Below are positions 43,003 through 52,139 of a stretch of 64,000 nt of DNA, piece after piece (within the stretch, counting starts at the first letter, position 1; each line of letters begins with the position of its first letter). A program made the translations under genes and the position numbers. Source of the DNA: an uncultured Gemmatimonadales bacterium (GTDB taxonomy: Bacteria > Gemmatimonadota > Gemmatimonadetes > Gemmatimonadales > GWC2-71-9); NCBI GenBank assembly GCA_963795085.1, contig CAWCFX010000001.1, positions 1 through 64,000 on the forward strand. The letters are read 5' to 3'. The notes under the pieces were generated by a model. The model was not told the origin of the DNA. It worked only from the letters and a program-made list of their open reading frames with translations, and searched no databases.

Positions 43003-43521
43003 ATGCAGGTGTTGAATTTCCCCGAGCTCTGGAAGCACGCGCTGACGTACCAGGAGTTTGTCGAAGGGAGCGGTGCGAACCGGGGACTCTGGGAGGGCCT
43101 CTACCGGCTGGCCCGGCTGCCTCCCTGGTCGCTGGCGCCCGATGGGCGGGCCCGGAGGCTGCTCGTGCTGGTCGAAGACTGGTGCGGGGACGCGTCCAAC
43201 ACGGTGCCCGTCCTGGCGCGTTGGGCAGAAGCGATGGCGGAGGCCGAGTTGAAGGTGCTCCCGCGAGACCAATATCCCGAGGTCATGGACCGCTACCTGA
43301 CCAACGGGTCTCGCTCCATTCCCATCGTCATCGTCCTGGACCGTGGCCTGGCCGAGCTGGGGCACTGGGGACCGCGGCCGGCCGAGCTGCAGCAGTGGGT
43401 CATGGCAAACCGGACGGTAATGCCCAAGGCGGAGCTATATCCCGAGGTACGTAAATGGTACGCCCGGGACCGGGGAGAGACGACGCTCAAAGAGGTGTTG
43501 GCAGTCGGCAGTGATCGGTAA
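43003..43521 (+). CDS. Thioredoxin-like protein (monothiol WCGD family)
   Basis: LVEDWCGDA; LTNGSRSIP; WGPRP. Confidence 0.88.
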   Translation: MQVLNFPELWKHALTYQEFVEGSGANRGLWEGLYRLARLPPWSLAPDGRARRLLVLVEDWCGDASNTVPVLARWAEAMAEAELKVLPRDQYPEVMDRYLTNGSRSIPIVIVLDRGLAELGHWGPRPAELQQWVMANRTVMPKAELYPEVRKWYARDRGETTLKEVLAVGSDR

Positions 43522-43561
43522 GCAGGGACACTCAGCACTCAGTACTCAGTACTCCGTAGTT

Positions 43562-44707
43562 CTAGAACAACCACCCTCCGTTCATCGTGAAGTTCCAGCC
43601 CTCGTCGCCCCTGGCGAGGTTGAAGGTAAAGATGGTGGACCGCAGGATCCGCATGGCGATGCCCCCGCCTCCGCCGACCTTCAGGTCGTCCGTGGTCAGC
43701 CGGAAAGCCTCCTGTTCGAACACCCGTCCCGCATCCACGAAGGCGACCGCGCTGATGGCGCCCAGGGTGGCGAGGTCCAGGATATTGTGGCGGATTTCCA
43801 GGTTGCCGAAGAGCACGCCTTCCCCGGTAAACCGGCCTTCATCGTAGGCGCGGTGGGTGTCGTCGCCGCCGAAGATGGTGATGGTGTTCTCCCACATGGG
43901 CAGTTCGAACCGGGCGTGCAGCGGAGGCCCGTCGGTCATGCCGGCTCCGCCGATTCGCGCCCCGATCACGGTTCCTTCACGCGGGGAGACAAATCCGCGA
44001 ATGGCGCCGTGCACCCGCCGGTAGCCGGTACCGCCGCTCCCCGCGGCGACGCCGGCTTCGGCGAAAATGCCCCGCGTCGTATTGAACTCGCTGTCCCGGG
44101 TGTCCAGAATCAGGGTGACCCGGCCGGTGACGTCATCGTCCTTTACCTCGCGGGCAAACTGGGAGCGAAACACCGATGGCCCCGGCAGGTCGCTCATCAG
44201 GCTCCGCTGGTACCCCACCGCCCCGCTGATGTGCAGCGGCCCGGTGATCCGCCGGGTGATCTCGCCGTTGACCAGCATGCGCTTCCGCCGCATCCGGTAA
44301 TAGAAAGGCTGGTTGTCGTTGACGCTGTCGGCATCGAACGTCGAGTTGTTGCCGATGCCGAAGAAGCCGAGCCGCGCTTCCCGCACCAGGGAGGCCGTGG
44401 CCGCCAGCCGCCAGCCGTCCTTGAGAGCCGGCACCCGCAGCAGCGCGGTGGCGAAGTAGCTGCTGTTGAGGCTGGCGCCCAGGTCGAGGCTCAGGTTGCC
44501 GAGGAAGGGGAACGGGGAGAGATAGTCGTCCACCGGCCGGGTCCATTGCAGCTTGACGGCGGCCATGGGAAAATCGTTGGCACCGCTGGTGATGTACGGG
44601 TAGCGGCTGTCCACCCATTCCTGGGCTTGCGCGCGGCCGGCGGTCGCCAGCAGGATCGCCGCCAGCGCCGTCGCCCGAATCCAGCGGTTGGCGGGAATGG
44701 CGCGCAT
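43562..44707 (-). CDS. Omp85/BamA-TamA family outer-membrane barrel without obvious POTRA domains
   Basis: Signal peptide; ILDTRDS; GGDDTHRAY..GRF; NLEIR; FVDAGRV; C-terminal WLF. Confidence 0.85.
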   Translation of the reverse strand: MRAIPANRWIRATALAAILLATAGRAQAQEWVDSRYPYITSGANDFPMAAVKLQWTRPVDDYLSPFPFLGNLSLDLGASLNSSYFATALLRVPALKDGWRLAATASLVREARLGFFGIGNNSTFDADSVNDNQPFYYRMRRKRMLVNGEITRRITGPLHISGAVGYQRSLMSDLPGPSVFRSQFAREVKDDDVTGRVTLILDTRDSEFNTTRGIFAEAGVAAGSGGTGYRRVHGAIRGFVSPREGTVIGARIGGAGMTDGPPLHARFELPMWENTITIFGGDDTHRAYDEGRFTGEGVLFGNLEIRHNILDLATLGAISAVAFVDAGRVFEQEAFRLTTDDLKVGGGGGIAMRILRSTIFTFNLARGDEGWNFTMNGGWLF

Positions 44708-45747
44708 CAGCGGGGTCCCTGGTAGAGGTAGGCGGTGTCCGGGGAGGAGGCCCCGGTGCCGTCGTGCACCGCGTACTTGGACGGGAACATCGAGGCCGCC
44801 CCGTACTCGCCCCGCTTGTTGAGGGCATAGAAGGTCAGCTGGAAGCGGGGCTGCCCCCGTTCGTCGAGGAGCCGGGGCGGGGTCATGGCGACCACCCGCC
44901 GGCAGGTTTCCAGCGCGGCATCCGCCGGTTTCATCCCCCGCCGCATGTTCTCCACGGTCAGGAACCCGCCGCAGACCATGATGTTGGATTCGCCCCGTCC
45001 GGTCGAGCCGGCGGCGCCGATCTCGTTATCGGTGTACTGCCCGGCTCCGATAATCGGAGAATCTCCCACCCGTCCCGGGATTTTCCAGGCCAGGCCGCTG
45101 GTGGTGGTCACGGAGGAAATGTCGCCGGCGGCGTTGATCACGTTCAAGTTGATGGTCCCGGTGGGGCGGCCCACCACCATCGACTCATTCTCCGGGACGT
45201 TGAGATAGTCATCCTCCGCGCCCCGGTTGGCCCGCCACGTCAGCCAGGCCTGCCGGCTCTCCGGGGTCATCAGGTCCTCTTCCTTGAACCCGTAGGACAG
45301 GGCGAACCGCTTCGCCCCCTCGCCAACCAGCATGATGTGGTTAGTGTACTTGAGGACCAGCTTGGCGACCTCGCTCGGGGTCTTGATCCCTTCGAGCGAG
45401 CCCACCGCCCCCGCGCGCCGGGTCGGGCCGTGCATGCACGACGCGTCCAGCTGGACGATGCCCTCTTCGTTGGGGAGGCCGCCGTAGCCGACCGAGGAGT
45501 CGCCGGGATCGAGCTCCTGGATCTTGACGCCTGCCACGGCGGCATCGAGCGTGTCACTGCCCCCCACCACCAGTTCGACCGCCCGGGTCACCGGCGCCAG
45601 GCTGTTATTGGAGGAGATCGCCACCGGGCGGGCTGGCGGCCGCCTGATAACCGCCGGGGCCGCCAGCGCGGAGCCGGGCAGCGCCGCGGCGGCCACGAGC
45701 GCGCCGCTGGACTCGAGAAACCGCCGGCGGGAAACGGGATAGGGCAC
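44707..45747 (-). CDS. Tat-exported Ntn-hydrolase: glycosylasparaginase / isoaspartyl peptidase family
   Basis: SRRRFL Tat motif; VGYGGLP..LDASCM; GTI autocleavage site; TTTSG..KIPGRVGDSPIIGAG; STGRGE. Confidence 0.92.
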   Translation of the reverse strand: MPYPVSRRRFLESSGALVAAAALPGSALAAPAVIRRPPARPVAISSNNSLAPVTRAVELVVGGSDTLDAAVAGVKIQELDPGDSSVGYGGLPNEEGIVQLDASCMHGPTRRAGAVGSLEGIKTPSEVAKLVLKYTNHIMLVGEGAKRFALSYGFKEEDLMTPESRQAWLTWRANRGAEDDYLNVPENESMVVGRPTGTINLNVINAAGDISSVTTTSGLAWKIPGRVGDSPIIGAGQYTDNEIGAAGSTGRGESNIMVCGGFLTVENMRRGMKPADAALETCRRVVAMTPPRLLDERGQPRFQLTFYALNKRGEYGAASMFPSKYAVHDGTGASSPDTAYLYQGPR

Positions 45748-45916
45748 AGACACACTCCATGAGTTCGGGGGCTTGCCCAGCAAAATCGAATGGGATAAAA
45801 GACGACTCTTCCAGCCCTGTCAACTATAGGCGCTGGGGATGGTCGAGGTGGTGGGCCGGATCACAGGGCCGGGCCCGGCGCTCGACTTTGCGCCAGCCCG
45901 GACCCGTGGCTCCGGA

Positions 45917-47317
45917 TCAGTAGCCCGGATTCTGCACGATATTGGGGGCCACGTCGATCTCCGAGAGTGGAATCGGATACAGCGTCTGGAAGGCGGGAAT
46001 GCCCAGTACCGTTTCCGCGACCCCGCGGCGGGTCAGGTCGGACCACCGGTCCCCTTCCATGGCCAGCTCGAGGAACCGCTGCCGGTCGATCTCGGCCAGC
46101 ACGTCGGCCTGGGTGGTTACCTCGACGCCCAGCGTGAGCGGCGCCAGCCCGGCCCGGACCCGGATCTTGTTCACTTCATCCAGGGCCGGCTGCAACTGGC
46201 TCATTCGCGCCAGCGCTTCCGCCTTGATCAGGAGCACCTCGGCAAAGCGGATGGCGTGAATATCTTCCCCTCCGGCGGTGGTGGGATACCGGGTGCCCCA
46301 GGCATCCGGCTCAGTCAGCGGCAGGAAGGAGCCGGTGATCGACCAGGTGAGCCGGGCGTCGGTCGAGGGATCGTAGGGGTCGACAAAGGCGTCGATCAGC
46401 TCCTGGCTGGGAGCCAGCTCACACCCGCCGCCGACGTCGCAGGAAATCCAGTAGTACATGTACTGGTACTGGATGTCGGTAAAGGTAACCTTGAAGATGT
46501 CCTCCGGCGTGTCCTGGCCGTCGGCATCGAACAGGTCGCTGAAACTGGCGGCCAGGTCGTAGCCCCGTGCGATCACCGCGTTCGCGCTGCTGTTCGCGTT
46601 GGCGTAGTCCTCGAGGAACAGATACACCCGGGCCTGCAAGGCATCGACGGCGCCCAGGGTGGCATGGTTCGCCGGCGCGGTGCTGGTCATCAGCGACCCG
46701 GCCTGCTGCAGGTCGCTCAGGATCTGGGCATAGGTCTCCGCCTCGGTGCTCCGGGCAATCTGGGAGGCCTCCTCCACGCTGGCCGCCGGCTCCAGCCGCA
46801 GCGGCACCCCGCCGAACACCTTCACCAGGTTGTGGTAGTGGAGCGCGCGGAGGAAGTACGCCTCGCCCAGGATCTGGTCCCGCTCGGCCGGGTCGAGCCC
46901 GGTGACCGAGGGGACCCGATCGATCAGGACGTTGGCCCGGTGAATCGCGGCATAGATCGACGCCCAGATGTCCTCGATCACCCCGTTGTTCGACAGCAGC
47001 TGGTTGGCATCGGCGTCGGCGTAGCTGTTGGAGGTGCCATCGTCGTCGTGGACCGAGTTGTCGGACGACAGGTCGCCGAAGAGATAGAAGTCACCGCCGT
47101 AGTAGCTGTCCTCCTGCAGCGCTGCATAGGCTCCCGCGAGCGCCGCGCGGGCGCCTTCCGGGGTCGTGATGGCAATATCCTCCGGCAGTTCGTCCACCGG
47201 GTTCTGGTCGAGGAGCGAGTCGCAGCCGGCCAGGGCAACGGCCAGCAGGAGCGCGGTCCCGGTCTTTTTCAGCATGGGGAAGGTCCTCGCCACGGAATGA
47301 AAGAGTTGGCTGGTCAT
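45917..47317 (-). CDS. RagB/SusD family nutrient-binding lipoprotein
   Basis: Lipobox ALAGC; GEAYFLRALHY; FGGVP; IRFAEVLLIKAEA; ELAMEGDRW; PIPLSEI..PN..QNPGY. Confidence 0.95.
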   Translation of the reverse strand: MTSQLFHSVARTFPMLKKTGTALLLAVALAGCDSLLDQNPVDELPEDIAITTPEGARAALAGAYAALQEDSYYGGDFYLFGDLSSDNSVHDDDGTSNSYADADANQLLSNNGVIEDIWASIYAAIHRANVLIDRVPSVTGLDPAERDQILGEAYFLRALHYHNLVKVFGGVPLRLEPAASVEEASQIARSTEAETYAQILSDLQQAGSLMTSTAPANHATLGAVDALQARVYLFLEDYANANSSANAVIARGYDLAASFSDLFDADGQDTPEDIFKVTFTDIQYQYMYYWISCDVGGGCELAPSQELIDAFVDPYDPSTDARLTWSITGSFLPLTEPDAWGTRYPTTAGGEDIHAIRFAEVLLIKAEALARMSQLQPALDEVNKIRVRAGLAPLTLGVEVTTQADVLAEIDRQRFLELAMEGDRWSDLTRRGVAETVLGIPAFQTLYPIPLSEIDVAPNIVQNPGY

Positions 47318-47319
47318 GG

Positions 47320-50300
47320 TTACCACCCCGCCTGGATGCCGAAGATCCACGTCCGGGCCAGCGGATAGGCATAGAAGTCGCTGCCGAGGGAGATGTTGGC
47401 CCCCGATCCGTTGCTGTTGAGGTCCGGGTCATAGCCGGTGTAATCAGAGCTGGTGATCAGGTTCCGGCCGGTGATGTACACCCGGGCCTGTTCGAAGCCG
47501 AGAATGCCGCCGATCCGCAGGGGAACATCGTAGCCCAGCGTGAGGTCCTGCAGCCGCCAGTAGGACGCATCCTCGACAAACCGGCTGGAGACTACCCGGG
47601 CGTTGGAGGTGCCGTCATAGCTGGCCCTGGGCACCTCGGTGACGTCGCCCGGCTGCTGCCAGCGGTCCATCTGGTCGGCGAACTGGTTGTCCTCGTAGTA
47701 GCCACCCGCTCCGCTGAAAATCCGCATGGCGTTGAAGATCTCCCCGCCCTGGCTGAAGGTGACGAAGACGCTGAGGTCGAAGCGGCCGTAGCTCAGGTTG
47801 TTGGTGAGCCCGCCGACATAGTCGGGATGGGGGCTGCCCACGATCTGCCGGTCGTCGGCGGTGATACTGCCGTCGCCGTCGGTGTCCTCGTAGATGGCAT
47901 CGCCGGTCTGGGGATCTACGCCCATGAACCGGAGCGCGTAAAAGGCGCCCAGCGGCTGGCCCACCTCGACCCGGTTGATGCTGCGAATGCCGGCCGTGAA
48001 CGGCTCGTCGTTGAAGAGCTTGGTGACCTCGTTCCGGTTGGCGGCCAGGTTGAGGGAAGTGGCCCACCGGAAGCCGCCGGGCCGCGACCGCTCGATGTTG
48101 ACGGTCTCCAGCTGAACCTCGAAGCCGTTGTTCTCCATGTTGCCCACGTTGTCGGTGATGCTGGAGAACCCGCTGGTGGTGGTAATCGGGCGGGCCAGCA
48201 GCATGTCCCGGGTCAGTTTCCGGTAGTAATCGATGCTGAACCCGATCCGGCCCCGGAACATCTCGGCGTCGAGGCCGACATTGAACTGCCGGGTGGACTC
48301 CCACTTGAGGTCCGGATTGGCCAGGTTGGCCGGGGCCAGGCCGCCCTCGCTGCCATAGTTGGAAGTGAAGAAGGTGCCCTGCCAGGAGTAGTTGCCGATC
48401 TCCTGGTTGCCGGTGAGCCCCAGGCTGGTCCGGATCTTCAGGTGCTCGAAGGTGCTCGAACCGGCCATGAACGATTCTTCGCTCAGGACCCAGCCTGCCG
48501 AGGCCGCGGGGAAGACGCCCCACTTGTTGTTGGCGCCGAACCGGGACGACCCATCGCCCCGGAGGCTGGCGCCCAGCAGGTACTTTCCGCGGAGAGCGTA
48601 ATTGGCCCGTCCGAAAAACGAGATCAGGTTGCTTTCGTTCCGGGACCCGTCGAACGTCACCGGGGTGGTGGCGTTGCGGACCTGGGTAAACCGGTCGTTG
48701 GTAAGTCCTTCCCCGCGGATAAAGTTCAGCTCTCCCCGGTTGAGTTCCAGCGCTCCGCCCCCTGTCACCTGGAAACTCTGTCGCTCGCCCAGGCCCGGGG
48801 TGTACGTGAGGAAGCTCTCCATCACGTACCGGTTCGCGTTGGAGTAGGCGCTCTTGGCGATGCCGTTGGCGCTCTGGGCATAGGTGCCCTCCACCCGGGG
48901 GCTTTCGTACTGGGACTCCCGCAGGTTGAGCAGGTCAACCCCGCCGCGAGCGGTGAACAGCAGCCCGTGCCGCATGTTCCACCGGGCCTCCGCATTACCG
49001 ACAATCCGGAGGGTACGGGCCTGGGCCGTATTGAGGCTGGCCAGCGCCACGCTATTGGGGTACTGGAGCCCGTCGGTGAGACCGCTGAACTCGCCGTCCG
49101 GCCGCCGGACGGCCACCAGCGGCTGGTTCCCCACCACGTTGGTAATAATGCCGGTCGAGCTGCCGTCGTTTTCGATCCGGTCGTTGACCTCTCCGGAAAT
49201 GCCCAGCGACGTGCTCAGCGAAAACCGGTCGATCGACCCGAAATCCAGGTTCGCCCGCCCCGACGCACGCCGGTAGGCCGACCCGATCACGATGCCGTTC
49301 TGGTCGAAATAGCTGCCCGAGAGCCGGTAGCGCATCCGCTCGTCACCGCCGGTCAGGCCCAGCTCGGTGTTGCTGAGCGGCGCCCGCCGCAGCACGGCGT
49401 CCTGCCAGTCGGTGTTGATCTGGTCATCCACGCCCGCCACCCCGAAGTAGTCGGAGCCGTAGCCGTCGTTCTCCGCGGCTTCGTTGAAATACTCGAGATA
49501 CTGCGCCGAGTTCAGCAGGTCGAGCCGCTTGGATACCGCCTGGGTCCCGATGTAGCTGCTGATCGTCGCCCGGGTCCGGCCGGCGACTCCGCGCTTGGTG
49601 GTGATCAGCACCACGCCGTTGGATCCCCGGGAGCCGTAGATCGCCGCGCCCGCCGCGTCCTTGAGGATGTCGATCGAGGCGATGTCGTTGGCACTCAGCC
49701 CGGTTACCCCGGTAATGCTCTGGCCCCCCATGTCGAGCTGGGCCAGCGCCTCGGACGTCATCGGAATGCCGTCCACGACATACAGCGGCTGGTTGCTGGC
49801 CAGCACCGAGGCGGAGCCCCGGATCCGCACCGTCAGGCCGTTGCCCGGGTTGCCGGCGTTCTGCACCACGGTAACGCCGGCCGCGTTCCCCATCAGGCCC
49901 GCGTCGGGACTGGCCGCCGACGGATCGAGTTGCTCGCCCCCGACCGAACTGACCGCGTTGGCGAGATCGGCACGCCGCATGGTGCCGTAGCCGACCACGA
50001 CCAGGTCATCCAGCCGCACGACCCGATGCTGGAGCCGGAAATCCGCGACGGCTTCCTGGGTCGCCGACACAGTGATCTCCCGCTCGGAGGCCAGGTAGCC
50101 CACCATTCGCACTCGCAGCGCCTGGGTCCCGGCCGGGACGCCGGTGAGAGCATAGGTGCCACTGGAGCGGGTAATCGTGCGGATGTCCGTGCCGACGACC
50201 GAAATCTCGGCACCGTCGATGGGCACGCCGCCGGCCGAGTCGGTAATGGTTCCGCGTACCGTACCGGTCTGCGCGAAGGCGGGTTGGGCCAGGACCGGCA

Positions 50301-50346
50301 GGGCTCCCAGCAACAGCAGGAACAGCAGCAAACGTCGGATGGTCAT
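47320..50346 (-). CDS. SusC/RagA family TonB-dependent transporter
   Basis: Signal peptide; LVVVGYG; PLYVVDG; ILKDAAGAAIYGSRGSNGVVLITTKRG; NPDLKWE; YPLART. RBS GGAGG. Confidence 0.96.
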   Translation of the reverse strand: MTIRRLLLFLLLLGALPVLAQPAFAQTGTVRGTITDSAGGVPIDGAEISVVGTDIRTITRSSGTYALTGVPAGTQALRVRMVGYLASEREITVSATQEAVADFRLQHRVVRLDDLVVVGYGTMRRADLANAVSSVGGEQLDPSAASPDAGLMGNAAGVTVVQNAGNPGNGLTVRIRGSASVLASNQPLYVVDGIPMTSEALAQLDMGGQSITGVTGLSANDIASIDILKDAAGAAIYGSRGSNGVVLITTKRGVAGRTRATISSYIGTQAVSKRLDLLNSAQYLEYFNEAAENDGYGSDYFGVAGVDDQINTDWQDAVLRRAPLSNTELGLTGGDERMRYRLSGSYFDQNGIVIGSAYRRASGRANLDFGSIDRFSLSTSLGISGEVNDRIENDGSSTGIITNVVGNQPLVAVRRPDGEFSGLTDGLQYPNSVALASLNTAQARTLRIVGNAEARWNMRHGLLFTARGGVDLLNLRESQYESPRVEGTYAQSANGIAKSAYSNANRYVMESFLTYTPGLGERQSFQVTGGGALELNRGELNFIRGEGLTNDRFTQVRNATTPVTFDGSRNESNLISFFGRANYALRGKYLLGASLRGDGSSRFGANNKWGVFPAASAGWVLSEESFMAGSSTFEHLKIRTSLGLTGNQEIGNYSWQGTFFTSNYGSEGGLAPANLANPDLKWESTRQFNVGLDAEMFRGRIGFSIDYYRKLTRDMLLARPITTTSGFSSITDNVGNMENNGFEVQLETVNIERSRPGGFRWATSLNLAANRNEVTKLFNDEPFTAGIRSINRVEVGQPLGAFYALRFMGVDPQTGDAIYEDTDGDGSITADDRQIVGSPHPDYVGGLTNNLSYGRFDLSVFVTFSQGGEIFNAMRIFSGAGGYYEDNQFADQMDRWQQPGDVTEVPRASYDGTSNARVVSSRFVEDASYWRLQDLTLGYDVPLRIGGILGFEQARVYITGRNLITSSDYTGYDPDLNSNGSGANISLGSDFYAYPLARTWIFGIQAGW

Positions 50347-50383
50347 GAGATGCCTCCGGAGGGTGTACGGCATGCCGTGATCG

Positions 50384-51292
50384 TCATGGTGAATCGGTGG
50401 GTGAGGGAAGACGGGCCCGGCCGCGGGCCGGATCGAACCGGCTGCCGGGAGGGAGGACATGGGTGACCAGGCCGGAAACACCGAGCAGGGTCTGGTCCGG
50501 TGGAGTGATACGGGCCTGCCTGGCATCGTAGATGACCACCGATCCGAGGCCGACCACCAGCCAGGTGCCATCGGGGCCGACTTCCAGGGCGGTGCTTTCG
50601 TCAATGCCGACGCCCAGCAGGCCGGGGCGTTCCAGGACCACGCTCAACAGCCGGTTGTGGCGCTCCCGGGCGATGAAATGCTGGTCCACGACCGTGCCAG
50701 GAAGGAATCCGAACCCTGGAGCGATCTCGATGCTTGCCCGGGTGATGCTGGAGAAGGTGTCGCCGTAGTAACCACTGGTATCCGGGGGAGAACGGAGCTG
50801 GTTCCCGGTGATCATGGAGTCCGACATGATGGCGGCGCCCGCAGAGGTTCCGCCGACTACCGCTCCAGCCCGGTAGCGGGCCCGAATGGCACGAAGGACG
50901 GGCGTGCCCTGCAGGACCGCGGTGAGGCGGGCCTGGTCGCCGCCGGTAAACCAGATGCCGGTCGCCCCGGCCACCAGGGCTTCCGCCTGCTCCTGCAGCG
51001 CCTCCTCGCGGGTCACCAGGAGGACCGTGGCGGTCGCACCCAGCGCCTCCAGGTCGGCGGCCTTCTCGCGGCCCGCCTCCAGCGGTGCTCCGCTGGCCAG
51101 CGGCACCACCACGATGCGGGCCGATCCGGCGCCTCCGGCCAGCTGGACGAATCGGCTCACCATGGCCGGCGTTTGTCCGCCGCCGCCCACGATGAACAGG
51201 GAACCCTGGCCGGCTCCCTGGAATGAAAGCGCCGTGGCCGACAGCAGCAGGGTGGTAACGATCACGAGGGTCCCCCTGGCGCACGATGCCAC
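50384..51292 (-). CDS. cphB: Exported cyanophycinase (peptidase S51)
   Basis: Signal-like N-terminus; LFIVGGG; WFTGGDQARL; GGTSAGAAIMS (Ser); VDQHFIARERHNRL (His plus Arg pair); GVGIDEST (Glu). Confidence 0.88.
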   Translation of the reverse strand: MASCARGTLVIVTTLLLSATALSFQGAGQGSLFIVGGGGQTPAMVSRFVQLAGGAGSARIVVVPLASGAPLEAGREKAADLEALGATATVLLVTREEALQEQAEALVAGATGIWFTGGDQARLTAVLQGTPVLRAIRARYRAGAVVGGTSAGAAIMSDSMITGNQLRSPPDTSGYYGDTFSSITRASIEIAPGFGFLPGTVVDQHFIARERHNRLLSVVLERPGLLGVGIDESTALEVGPDGTWLVVGLGSVVIYDARQARITPPDQTLLGVSGLVTHVLPPGSRFDPARGRARLPSPTDSP

Positions 51293-52062
51293 CCGGCGCC
51301 CAGGCTCCGGGACACCCGCCCGGCTGCCTCGCCGAGCAGCCGGGCCATGCGGGTTATCGCCTCGGGGCCGAACCGGGCGGCGGGGCCGCCCACGCTCATG
51401 GCCGCGATCACCTGCGCCTCGTGGTTCCGAACCGCCGCGCCCAGCGCCACGTACCCCATCTCCAGCTCTTCGATCGCCGTGGCGTACCCGCGCTCAAGCA
51501 CCGCGGCCAGCTCGGTGCCCAGCCGGGCCTGGCTGGTGATGGTATTCGGCGTGAGCCGGGCCAGCCTGAATCCGGCGGGCCGCTCGGGGCCGAGCGCGGC
51601 CAGGAGGACCTTCCCGGTGGAAGTGGCGTGGGCCGGCCAGCGGCTCCCCACGATGGGCGCCGGGCTGAGCTTGTGCCGGCCCTGGACCTCGTCGAGCACC
51701 AGTACGTCGGTGCCGGCGAGGATCTCGAGGCTGGTGGTTTCCCCGGTCACCCGGGCCAGCTCGACCAGCTCGGCATGCGCGACCCGCTGGAGCGTGTTCG
51801 TTCGCTGCGCCAGCGATCCCAGTTCAATGGCCCTCGGCCCCAGGTGGAAAGTCCCGGTGGTGCGGTTGCGGACCACCAGCCCCTCGCGCTCCAGGGCGGT
51901 CAGGATCCGGAGCGCGGTGCTCCGGGTAAGCGAGACCGAGCGGGCGACATCGGCCAGCGCCCACTCGGGCGCCGCGTCGCTGAAGACGCGCAGGATGCCA
52001 AACGCCCGGGTGAGCGCTTGAGTGCCCTGCTGGGGTCGAGACAATGTGGCACGGATGTTCAC
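51262..52062 (-). CDS. IclR family transcriptional regulator
   Basis: QALTRAFGIL...HTH; HATSTGKVLLA; RGYA..EELE.G; AAMSVGGP. Confidence 0.93.
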   Translation of the reverse strand: MNIRATLSRPQQGTQALTRAFGILRVFSDAAPEWALADVARSVSLTRSTALRILTALEREGLVVRNRTTGTFHLGPRAIELGSLAQRTNTLQRVAHAELVELARVTGETTSLEILAGTDVLVLDEVQGRHKLSPAPIVGSRWPAHATSTGKVLLAALGPERPAGFRLARLTPNTITSQARLGTELAAVLERGYATAIEELEMGYVALGAAVRNHEAQVIAAMSVGGPAARFGPEAITRMARLLGEAAGRVSRSLGAGWHRAPGGPS

Positions 52063-52139
52063 TATATGGATAATGTCGGGCTCGACAGAGATGCCGTCAA
52101 GACCCTAAGTTCCGGAGCCTCTTATCTTTTCCGGTACCG

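Follow-up and report, generated by a model that had tools for sequence, protein, structure and literature searches.

The stretch of DNA analysed here (64,000 nucleotides, the window; contig CAWCFX010000001.1 of assembly GCA_963795085.1, from an uncultured Gemmatimonadales bacterium) contains six co-oriented minus-strand genes at 43562..52062, which are two units: a cassette encoding an IclR-family regulator, an exported cyanophycinase-type S51 peptidase, a SusC transporter and a SusD lipoprotein, and a separate housekeeping pair encoding an Ntn hydrolase and an Omp85-type barrel. We consider it reasonably probable that the SusC/SusD pair (SusCD) imports oligomers of cyanophycin, its predicted substrate, for periplasmic cleavage to beta-Asp-Arg. 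An earlier note on this DNA, made from the sequence alone, had listed six co-oriented genes of these families, with IclR overlapping S51, Ntn coupled to Omp85 by TGATG and no glycoside hydrolase in the cluster; the open reading frames (ORFs) and family profile searches, which confirmed all six as genes, bear out this description.

Gene content, conservation and regulation of the cassette

The IclR-family regulator (266 aa, 51262..52062, minus strand as for all features below; PF01614 and PF09339) is the first gene of the cassette, and its stop codon overlaps the start of the S51 gene (293 aa, 50384..51265; PF03575 and TIGR02069) in the sequence GTGA at 51265-51262. Gaps of 37 bp and 2 bp separate S51 from susC (1008 aa, 47320..50346) and susC from susD (452-466 aa, with a second ATG at 47275; 45917..47317; PF14322 and PF07980). 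SusC scored 748.5 with TIGR04056 (cut-off 368.25), was also over the cut-off of TIGR04057, and falls in a Gemmatimonadota-type clade in the tree. SusD carries the lipobox LAGC, the Cys of which was invariant in 25 of 25 sequences, has a pI of about 4.2, and yielded a predicted structure (pLDDT 74) that supports the SusD fold but does not point to any particular ligand. The SusC profile and the adjacent SusD lipoprotein together identify a SusC/SusD pair. A family profile search gave no match to glycoside hydrolase or polysaccharide lyase families in any of the six genes, and the cassette, having no carbohydrate-active enzyme (CAZyme), falls outside the definition of a polysaccharide utilisation locus (PUL). 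Another SusCD of the source genome does carry GH13/GH2: three further SusC genes were found there (L330:7642-12032, L331:6932-11160 and L332:7012-16888), one of which stands with SusD and GH13/GH2 in a true PUL, and the other two are followed by 440-aa proteins, for which there was no Pfam match at 1e-8 and no CAZyme among the neighbours scanned.

Judged by sequence and predicted fold, the S51 peptidase most likely hydrolyses cyanophycin to beta-Asp-Arg. It scored 186.5 bits with the cyanophycinase model TIGR02069 (cut-off 126.6) versus 27.4 with the PepE model (cut-off 156), and TIGR02069 was the best profile for 30 of 30 close homologs. The catalytic triad (S141/H196/E223) is intact and the N-terminus is hydrophobic, in agreement with the earlier note, which had described an exported enzyme with intact Ser/His/Glu motifs. 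The residues given as critical for cyanophycinase in the accessible part of PMC3235067, citing Law et al. 2009 (Gln101, Asp172, Gln173, Arg178, Arg180 and Arg183), have the counterparts Q111, D194, Q195, R200, R202 and R205, all present, and the three substrate Arg are kept in 47, 47 and 46 of the 47 members of the exported clade. The predicted model (pLDDT 91) matched CphB with Z 34.2 (rmsd 1.5-1.6 Å) and PepE with Z 21; profile scores and fold comparison thus rule out a PepE or MccG-like identity, and fold, triad and substrate residues are all shared with CphB of Synechocystis PCC 6803 (PDB 3EN0, 7UQW). A hydrophobic N-terminus, called with a hydropathy heuristic rather than a signal-peptide predictor, was found in 47/47 members of the exported clade and in 0/8 S51 proteins of the cphA-linked CphB type, and the two form separate branches in the S51 tree (L045 was left out of the N-terminus and motif counts, and both L045 and L205 out of the tree). 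Whereas CphB, including that of the Gemmatimonadota iadA-cphB-cphA-cphA' operons, is cytoplasmic and linked to cphA, the cassette enzyme has a predicted signal peptide and would act in the periplasm. The cphA-linked enzymes are a second S51 type in the phylum, found mostly in such operons (L037-L043: iadA, cphB, cphA and a truncated cphA'), and a third S51-like type (L045-L047) is longer (460-520 aa), divergent and only weakly matched.

Conservation was assessed in a sample of 401 Gemmatimonadota genomes, with window-type S51 called at E < 1e-50 and window-type SusD at E < 1e-45; synteny was counted by tblastn because the ORF caller had missed some genes. Window-type S51 was found in 47 genomes, window-type SusD in 48 and both in 34, against 5.6 expected if they were independent, a comparison that overstates the association because related genomes are not independent. 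They lie side by side on one contig in 21 genomes; in three more a contig end separates them, and in ten they are unlinked. S51 directly precedes susC in 20 of the 21 linked genomes, across two families, and IclR lies directly upstream of S51 in 14 of them; one linked locus has a different order, SusD followed by S51 and M14. A quick tree showed the linked SusDs dispersed across the SusD subfamily and belonging to two families. Only two metagenome contigs combined a close SusD with enough sequence upstream of it (L248 and L249), and both also carry S51; plasmid 2 of the cultured Gemmatirosa kalamazoonensis KBS708 (NZ_CP007130.1, ~653.8-659.1 kb) encodes, in succession, cyanophycinase, SusC and SusD. 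Of the named records, the three that come nearest to the window SusD belong to Gemmatimonadota, consistent with the non-Bacteroidota host assumed earlier; among ten clusters of metagenome SusD homologs (from a 50% library search) that were looked up, one was named Hymenobacter. The coupling of an exported cyanophycinase-type S51 to SusC/SusD and IclR, which the earlier note had proposed to check by a search for conserved neighbourhoods, is therefore upheld by synteny within Gemmatimonadota, and it is only the adjacency of Ntn that is confined to one genus.

The cassette has a predicted promoter at 52072..52100 (TTGACG as the -35 element at 52100-52095, a 17-nt spacer and the -10-like GACATT at 52077-52072), followed by a candidate IclR operator at 52046..52062, a 17-bp imperfect palindrome overlapping the GTG start of IclR (consensus GTGAAAC-N3-RTTCCAC). 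Such a palindrome covers the IclR start codon in 21 of 21 IclR loci, and the TTGAC box is likewise found in 21/21, lying 39-42 nt before the operator in 19. TTGAC and the left half of the palindrome served as anchors of the motif script and the site is coding; T, C and A of the right half are invariant though they were not anchors, and the residues encoded there differ between loci. The copy in the window is degenerate (score 10.4 versus 18.7-26.4 in the other loci). These sites suggest that IclR represses its own near-leaderless transcript at the putative operator. A first guess at the palindrome had failed. A scan of the source genome with the operator matrix gave 34 matches over a score of 13, versus 4-74 for 20 column-shuffled matrices, and no IclR regulon could be called because the matches did not exceed these controls; the top match was a tandem GGAAT-rich repeat region (G000:C1 ~628774-630070). 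The IclR subfamily itself is rare, being found in 30 of the 401 genomes.

Proposed function and competing readings

We propose that the IclR-autoregulated four-gene cassette would scavenge environmental cyanophycin, a nitrogen-storage polymer that other bacteria release: SusD would bind soluble cyanophycin fragments, SusC would draw on TonB energy to import them, and in the periplasm the cyanophycinase, exported by means of its signal peptide, would trim them to beta-Asp-Arg. Cleavage of the dipeptide would be left to host genes outside the cassette, namely IadA where present and, in the source genome, probably the glycosylasparaginase-like Ntn, which lies next to the cassette but is transcribed separately, the cassette in this genus having presumably landed upstream of an ancestral Ntn-Omp85 operon.

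Several observations weigh against this proposal. The cassette contains neither a dipeptidase nor an inner-membrane transporter, 14 of the 48 SusD-clade genomes lack the exported S51, 13 of the 47 S51 genomes lack the SusD clade, and G206 has lost IclR and S51 yet kept susCD at a site shared with cassette-bearing relatives (L228, G206:C5). Orphan SusDs have mostly unrelated housekeeping genes beside them, and among solved SusDs the dextran SusD comes closest in sequence, at low similarity. Many cassettes are flanked by SolA/Rieske genes, and in 7 of 30 loci a member of the IclR subfamily stands at the head of a GcvT-FAD oxidoreductase module. The best PDB sequence match to the S51 enzyme is 7UQV, titled pseudo-CphB, which we take to be inactive; a literature search found no paper on pseudo-CphB. 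Finally, the acidic GG[AG]E[ED] motif of CphB (GGAEDK-type), present in 8/8 cphA-type enzymes, was found in 0/47 members of the exported clade, with GGGGQ in the window, so that the side-chain specificity may differ; no account of the role of this N-terminal motif was found in the literature surveyed.

The loss of this motif, together with a clade-specific insertion after the nucleophile that likewise sets the exported clade apart from CphB, speaks for a broader or different beta-aspartyl or Asp-rich cargo, such as isoAsp peptides from damaged proteins, polyaspartate or Lys-type cyanophycin, handled by an S51 enzyme with a carboxylate-binding Arg pocket and altered side-chain specificity. Many solo S51 copies have other peptidases in their vicinity (M61, Met-zincin, S8 and TldD), and other members of the S51 family act on other substrates, according to the accessible part of PMC9239234. 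We regard such a cargo as unlikely though worth keeping in mind, given that every residue reported as critical for cyanophycinase is kept and that the close homologs uniformly prefer the cyanophycinase profile.

Alternatively, SusCD could carry an unrelated cargo, either a methylated amine or osmolyte connected with the IclR-GcvT/SolA/Rieske module, or else a glycan, with S51 as a frequent passenger. IclR-SusC-SusD without S51 occurs in L225 and L227 and IclR-SusC in L340, roughly half of the members of the SusD clade are orphans, an IclR paralog of the source genome heads a GcvT-FADox-FADox-Rieske module, and genes of such oxidoreductase modules flank the cassettes in genera g13 and g8 and in L109. 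That IclR heads both kinds of module may reflect a shared signal as well as a different cargo. Against a passenger role, S51 keeps its place directly before susC in two families, and the ten genomes in which S51 and SusD are unlinked nevertheless retain both. A clear glycoside hydrolase (GH95) was found only once among the 48 proteins scanned beside orphan SusDs, next to the most distant member. Small solutes, moreover, seldom need a SusD lid. An unrelated cargo is therefore improbable in our judgement. The paralogous module of the source genome (L329:2899-9259; G000:C4 ~117900-124259) consists of the 50% IclR paralog with an operator-like site at its start, a GcvT-like gene, two phytoene-desaturase-like FAD oxidoreductases and a GbcA-like Rieske protein, and is possibly a methylated-amine module.

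The Ntn-Omp85 pair as a separate unit

The six genes are assigned to two transcription units because the 169-bp gap between susD and the Ntn gene holds a strong hairpin and a conserved promoter. The hairpin, long and GC-rich, lies right after the susD stop (45852..45920; -45.3 kcal/mol, z -3.35, 1 of 200 shuffles equally good); it has no U-tract and is probably the end of the cassette transcript. The predicted promoter of the pair at 45793..45825 consists of AGTTGACA, 17 nt and TTTTAT (TAAATC/TAAACC in relatives). A TTGAC box, the window copy of which is at 45825-45818, precedes Ntn in 21 of 30 loci, 18 of these without a cassette upstream (counted by eye). A simple promoter/terminator scan gave nothing above chance, and an Rfam search gave no match.

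Downstream of this promoter lie the Tat-exported Ntn hydrolase (346 aa, 44707..45747; PF01112, with a G197-T198 cleavage site) and a POTRA-less Omp85-type barrel (381 aa, 43562..44707; PF01103 only, with NF047779 at 102.7, below the cut-off of 200), the stop of the former overlapping the start of the latter in TGATG at 44709-44705. This pair (43562-45825) is conserved order-wide: the Ntn gene was found in 40 of the 41 genomes searched, the source genome included, and Omp85 follows it in 26 of 29 loci of relatives. In G004, a 94% complete genome of the same genus, the order is Isochorismatase-Ntn-Omp85-thioredoxin without any insertion, and the corresponding Ntn site of G020 likewise has no cassette. 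Eighteen S51-SusC-SusD loci were read for at least ~4.5 kb beyond susD, and just three of them (the window, G001 and G002), all of one genus, have Ntn next to the cassette. The core status of Ntn, its own promoter, the hairpin, the cassette-free sites and this rare adjacency indicate that the cassette was inserted upstream of an older Ntn-Omp85 operon, and they lead us to reject a six-gene operon. The earlier note, which had seen in the six genes a complete route, is thus corrected as to the locus boundary, and the separate conserved pair is worth its own study. That all six nevertheless form one co-regulated cyanophycin pathway, with Ntn as dedicated dipeptidase and Omp85 as part of the machinery, could appeal to their co-orientation, to the adjacency kept in G001 and G002, to Ntn being the only recognisable beta-aspartyl hydrolase in the source genome and to the low beta-aspartyl dipeptidase activity of glycosylasparaginases (PMC10206079), but it is very improbable in view of the points above and of a beta-aspartyl-peptidase score far below its cut-off. 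Short direct repeats (GTACTGAG-like) occupy the convergent thioredoxin/Omp85 gap at 43521-43562, with a similar run elsewhere in the genome.

That score, 103.5 bits with PRK10226 (IaaA-type beta-aspartyl-peptidase) versus a cut-off of 567, places Ntn outside the IaaA type, whose enzymes are cytoplasmic whereas Ntn carries a Tat signal. It shares the fold family, the Thr nucleophile and the GRVGDSPIIG motif with both glycosylasparaginase (PDB 9GAF, 1P4K) and IaaA/EcAIII (2ZAK), and is much closer to the former (E 6.5e-59 with 9gaf, its closest solved relative, versus 1.5e-26 with 2zak), from which it differs by Gly-Thr instead of Asp-Thr at the nucleophile, by its Tat signal (22.1 bits, just under the TAT_signal cut-off of 22.7; motif SRRRFL) and by being a core gene paired with Omp85. 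The source genome (3.89 Mb, 93% complete) has one S51, one Asparaginase_2 gene (PF01112, the Ntn itself) and one PTR2 peptide transporter, and no iadA, AstE/AspA-type (CphZ-like) or YfcC gene was found in it. By elimination, as the only beta-aspartyl hydrolase candidate found there, Ntn may cleave beta-Asp-Arg in this genome, though not as a dedicated part of the cassette. In L109 and L203 the cassette is followed by a gene for an M14 carboxypeptidase-like protein, which has a 37% homolog elsewhere in the source genome and could be another dipeptide or peptide hydrolase.

The earlier note had also seen no cphA in the window and had taken this as fitting scavenging. The absence extends to the whole source genome, in which no cphA exceeded the cut-off, and to three incomplete congeners, but it is not diagnostic: of ten other cassette genomes tested, six have cphA, and iadA-type matches (E < 1e-60) were found in 12 of 24 cassette genomes of the sample (iadA is over the cut-off in 70 of the 401 genomes), so that cyanophycin producers carry the cassette too.

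Relation to known systems and significance

The concept is not new, as a similar locus type has already been predicted for another phylum: in 2017 the Bacteroidetes strain Salinivirga cyanobacteriivorans L21-Spi-D4 was proposed to have a 'cyanophycin utilization locus' (Ben Hania et al. 2017, as related in the accessible parts of PMC10206079 and PMC6243061). As far as these describe it, that locus is also genome-predicted and also clusters cyanophycinase with transport genes for scavenging, whereas the Gemmatimonadota cassette lacks iadA, YfcC, the enzyme with a Por-secretion domain and the extra surface lipoproteins, and has IclR. Of the features that define such a locus in PMC10206079, clustering with a transporter is found on one contig in 21/401 genomes, and iadA or iaaA is absent from the cluster; a host lacking cphA, the third such feature, is seen in the source genome and its three incomplete congeners, and cphA is present in six of the ten other cassette genomes. 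We nevertheless think it fairly likely that the cassette works like a cyanophycin utilization locus without iadA.

Among 75 more distant metagenome SusD loci, many of them short, S51 was found in one, the Bacteroidota-type L318 (SusC-SusD-lipoproteins-M20-S51-YfcC), so that the comparison with Bacteroidota rests on a single locus. Its S51, 40% identical, lies inside the same exported clade, whereas its SusC (31%) is placed among non-S51 low-GC SusCs (support 0.999) outside the Gemmatimonadota SusC clade (0.989), which fits separate coupling events, as a single example. It is tentatively conceivable, though doubtful as a whole, that in the Gemmatimonadota a SusC/SusD clade of their own became linked to an exported cyanophycinase independently of Bacteroidota, as a minimal system that imports a polyamide before cutting it in the periplasm, with Ntn finishing the route; the IclR subfamily would then also control methylated-amine catabolism, which would make the cassette a branch of a wider IclR regulon that obtains nitrogen from lysed cells.

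CphE of Pseudomonas alcaligenes and P. anguilliseptica, compared by its description in the accessible part of PMC3235067, is likewise a Sec-exported scavenging cyanophycinase, but is ~43 kDa when mature and released to the medium, whereas the cassette enzyme is CphB-sized and tied to SusCD. The tandem susC-susD with a hydrolase and a regulator resembles PULs and SusCD utilisomes (PULDB; accessible part of PMC5753385, where susCD is already noted in Gemmatimonadetes), with the difference that there is no CAZyme, the hydrolase is an S51 peptidase and the regulator is IclR. RagAB (PDB 6SLN, by its title) offers a comparison with a peptide-importing SusCD-type system, and further comparison literature was available in part (PMC9974463, PMC12661447, PMC11573002, PMC8880816 and a dextran preprint).

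A literature search, with subscription papers outside its coverage, found no title on a Gemmatimonadota cyanophycinase-SusCD locus. What is new is the Gemmatimonadota host, the phylum-specific SusC clade, the IclR with a conserved candidate operator and the cultured carrier G. kalamazoonensis. In the literature surveyed, as far as accessible, cyanophycin scavenging loci are genome predictions, and the tested route is that of the extracellular CphE, which releases dipeptides that are shared. The three- or four-gene cassette is the simplest version for testing transport of a non-glycan polyamide by SusCD, and strain KBS708 makes it available in culture. If true, a dipeptidase role of Ntn would be new for the glycosylasparaginase-like clade in the accessible literature, and the cassette would assign a definite part in nitrogen scavenging to a phylum that is abundant yet poorly known.

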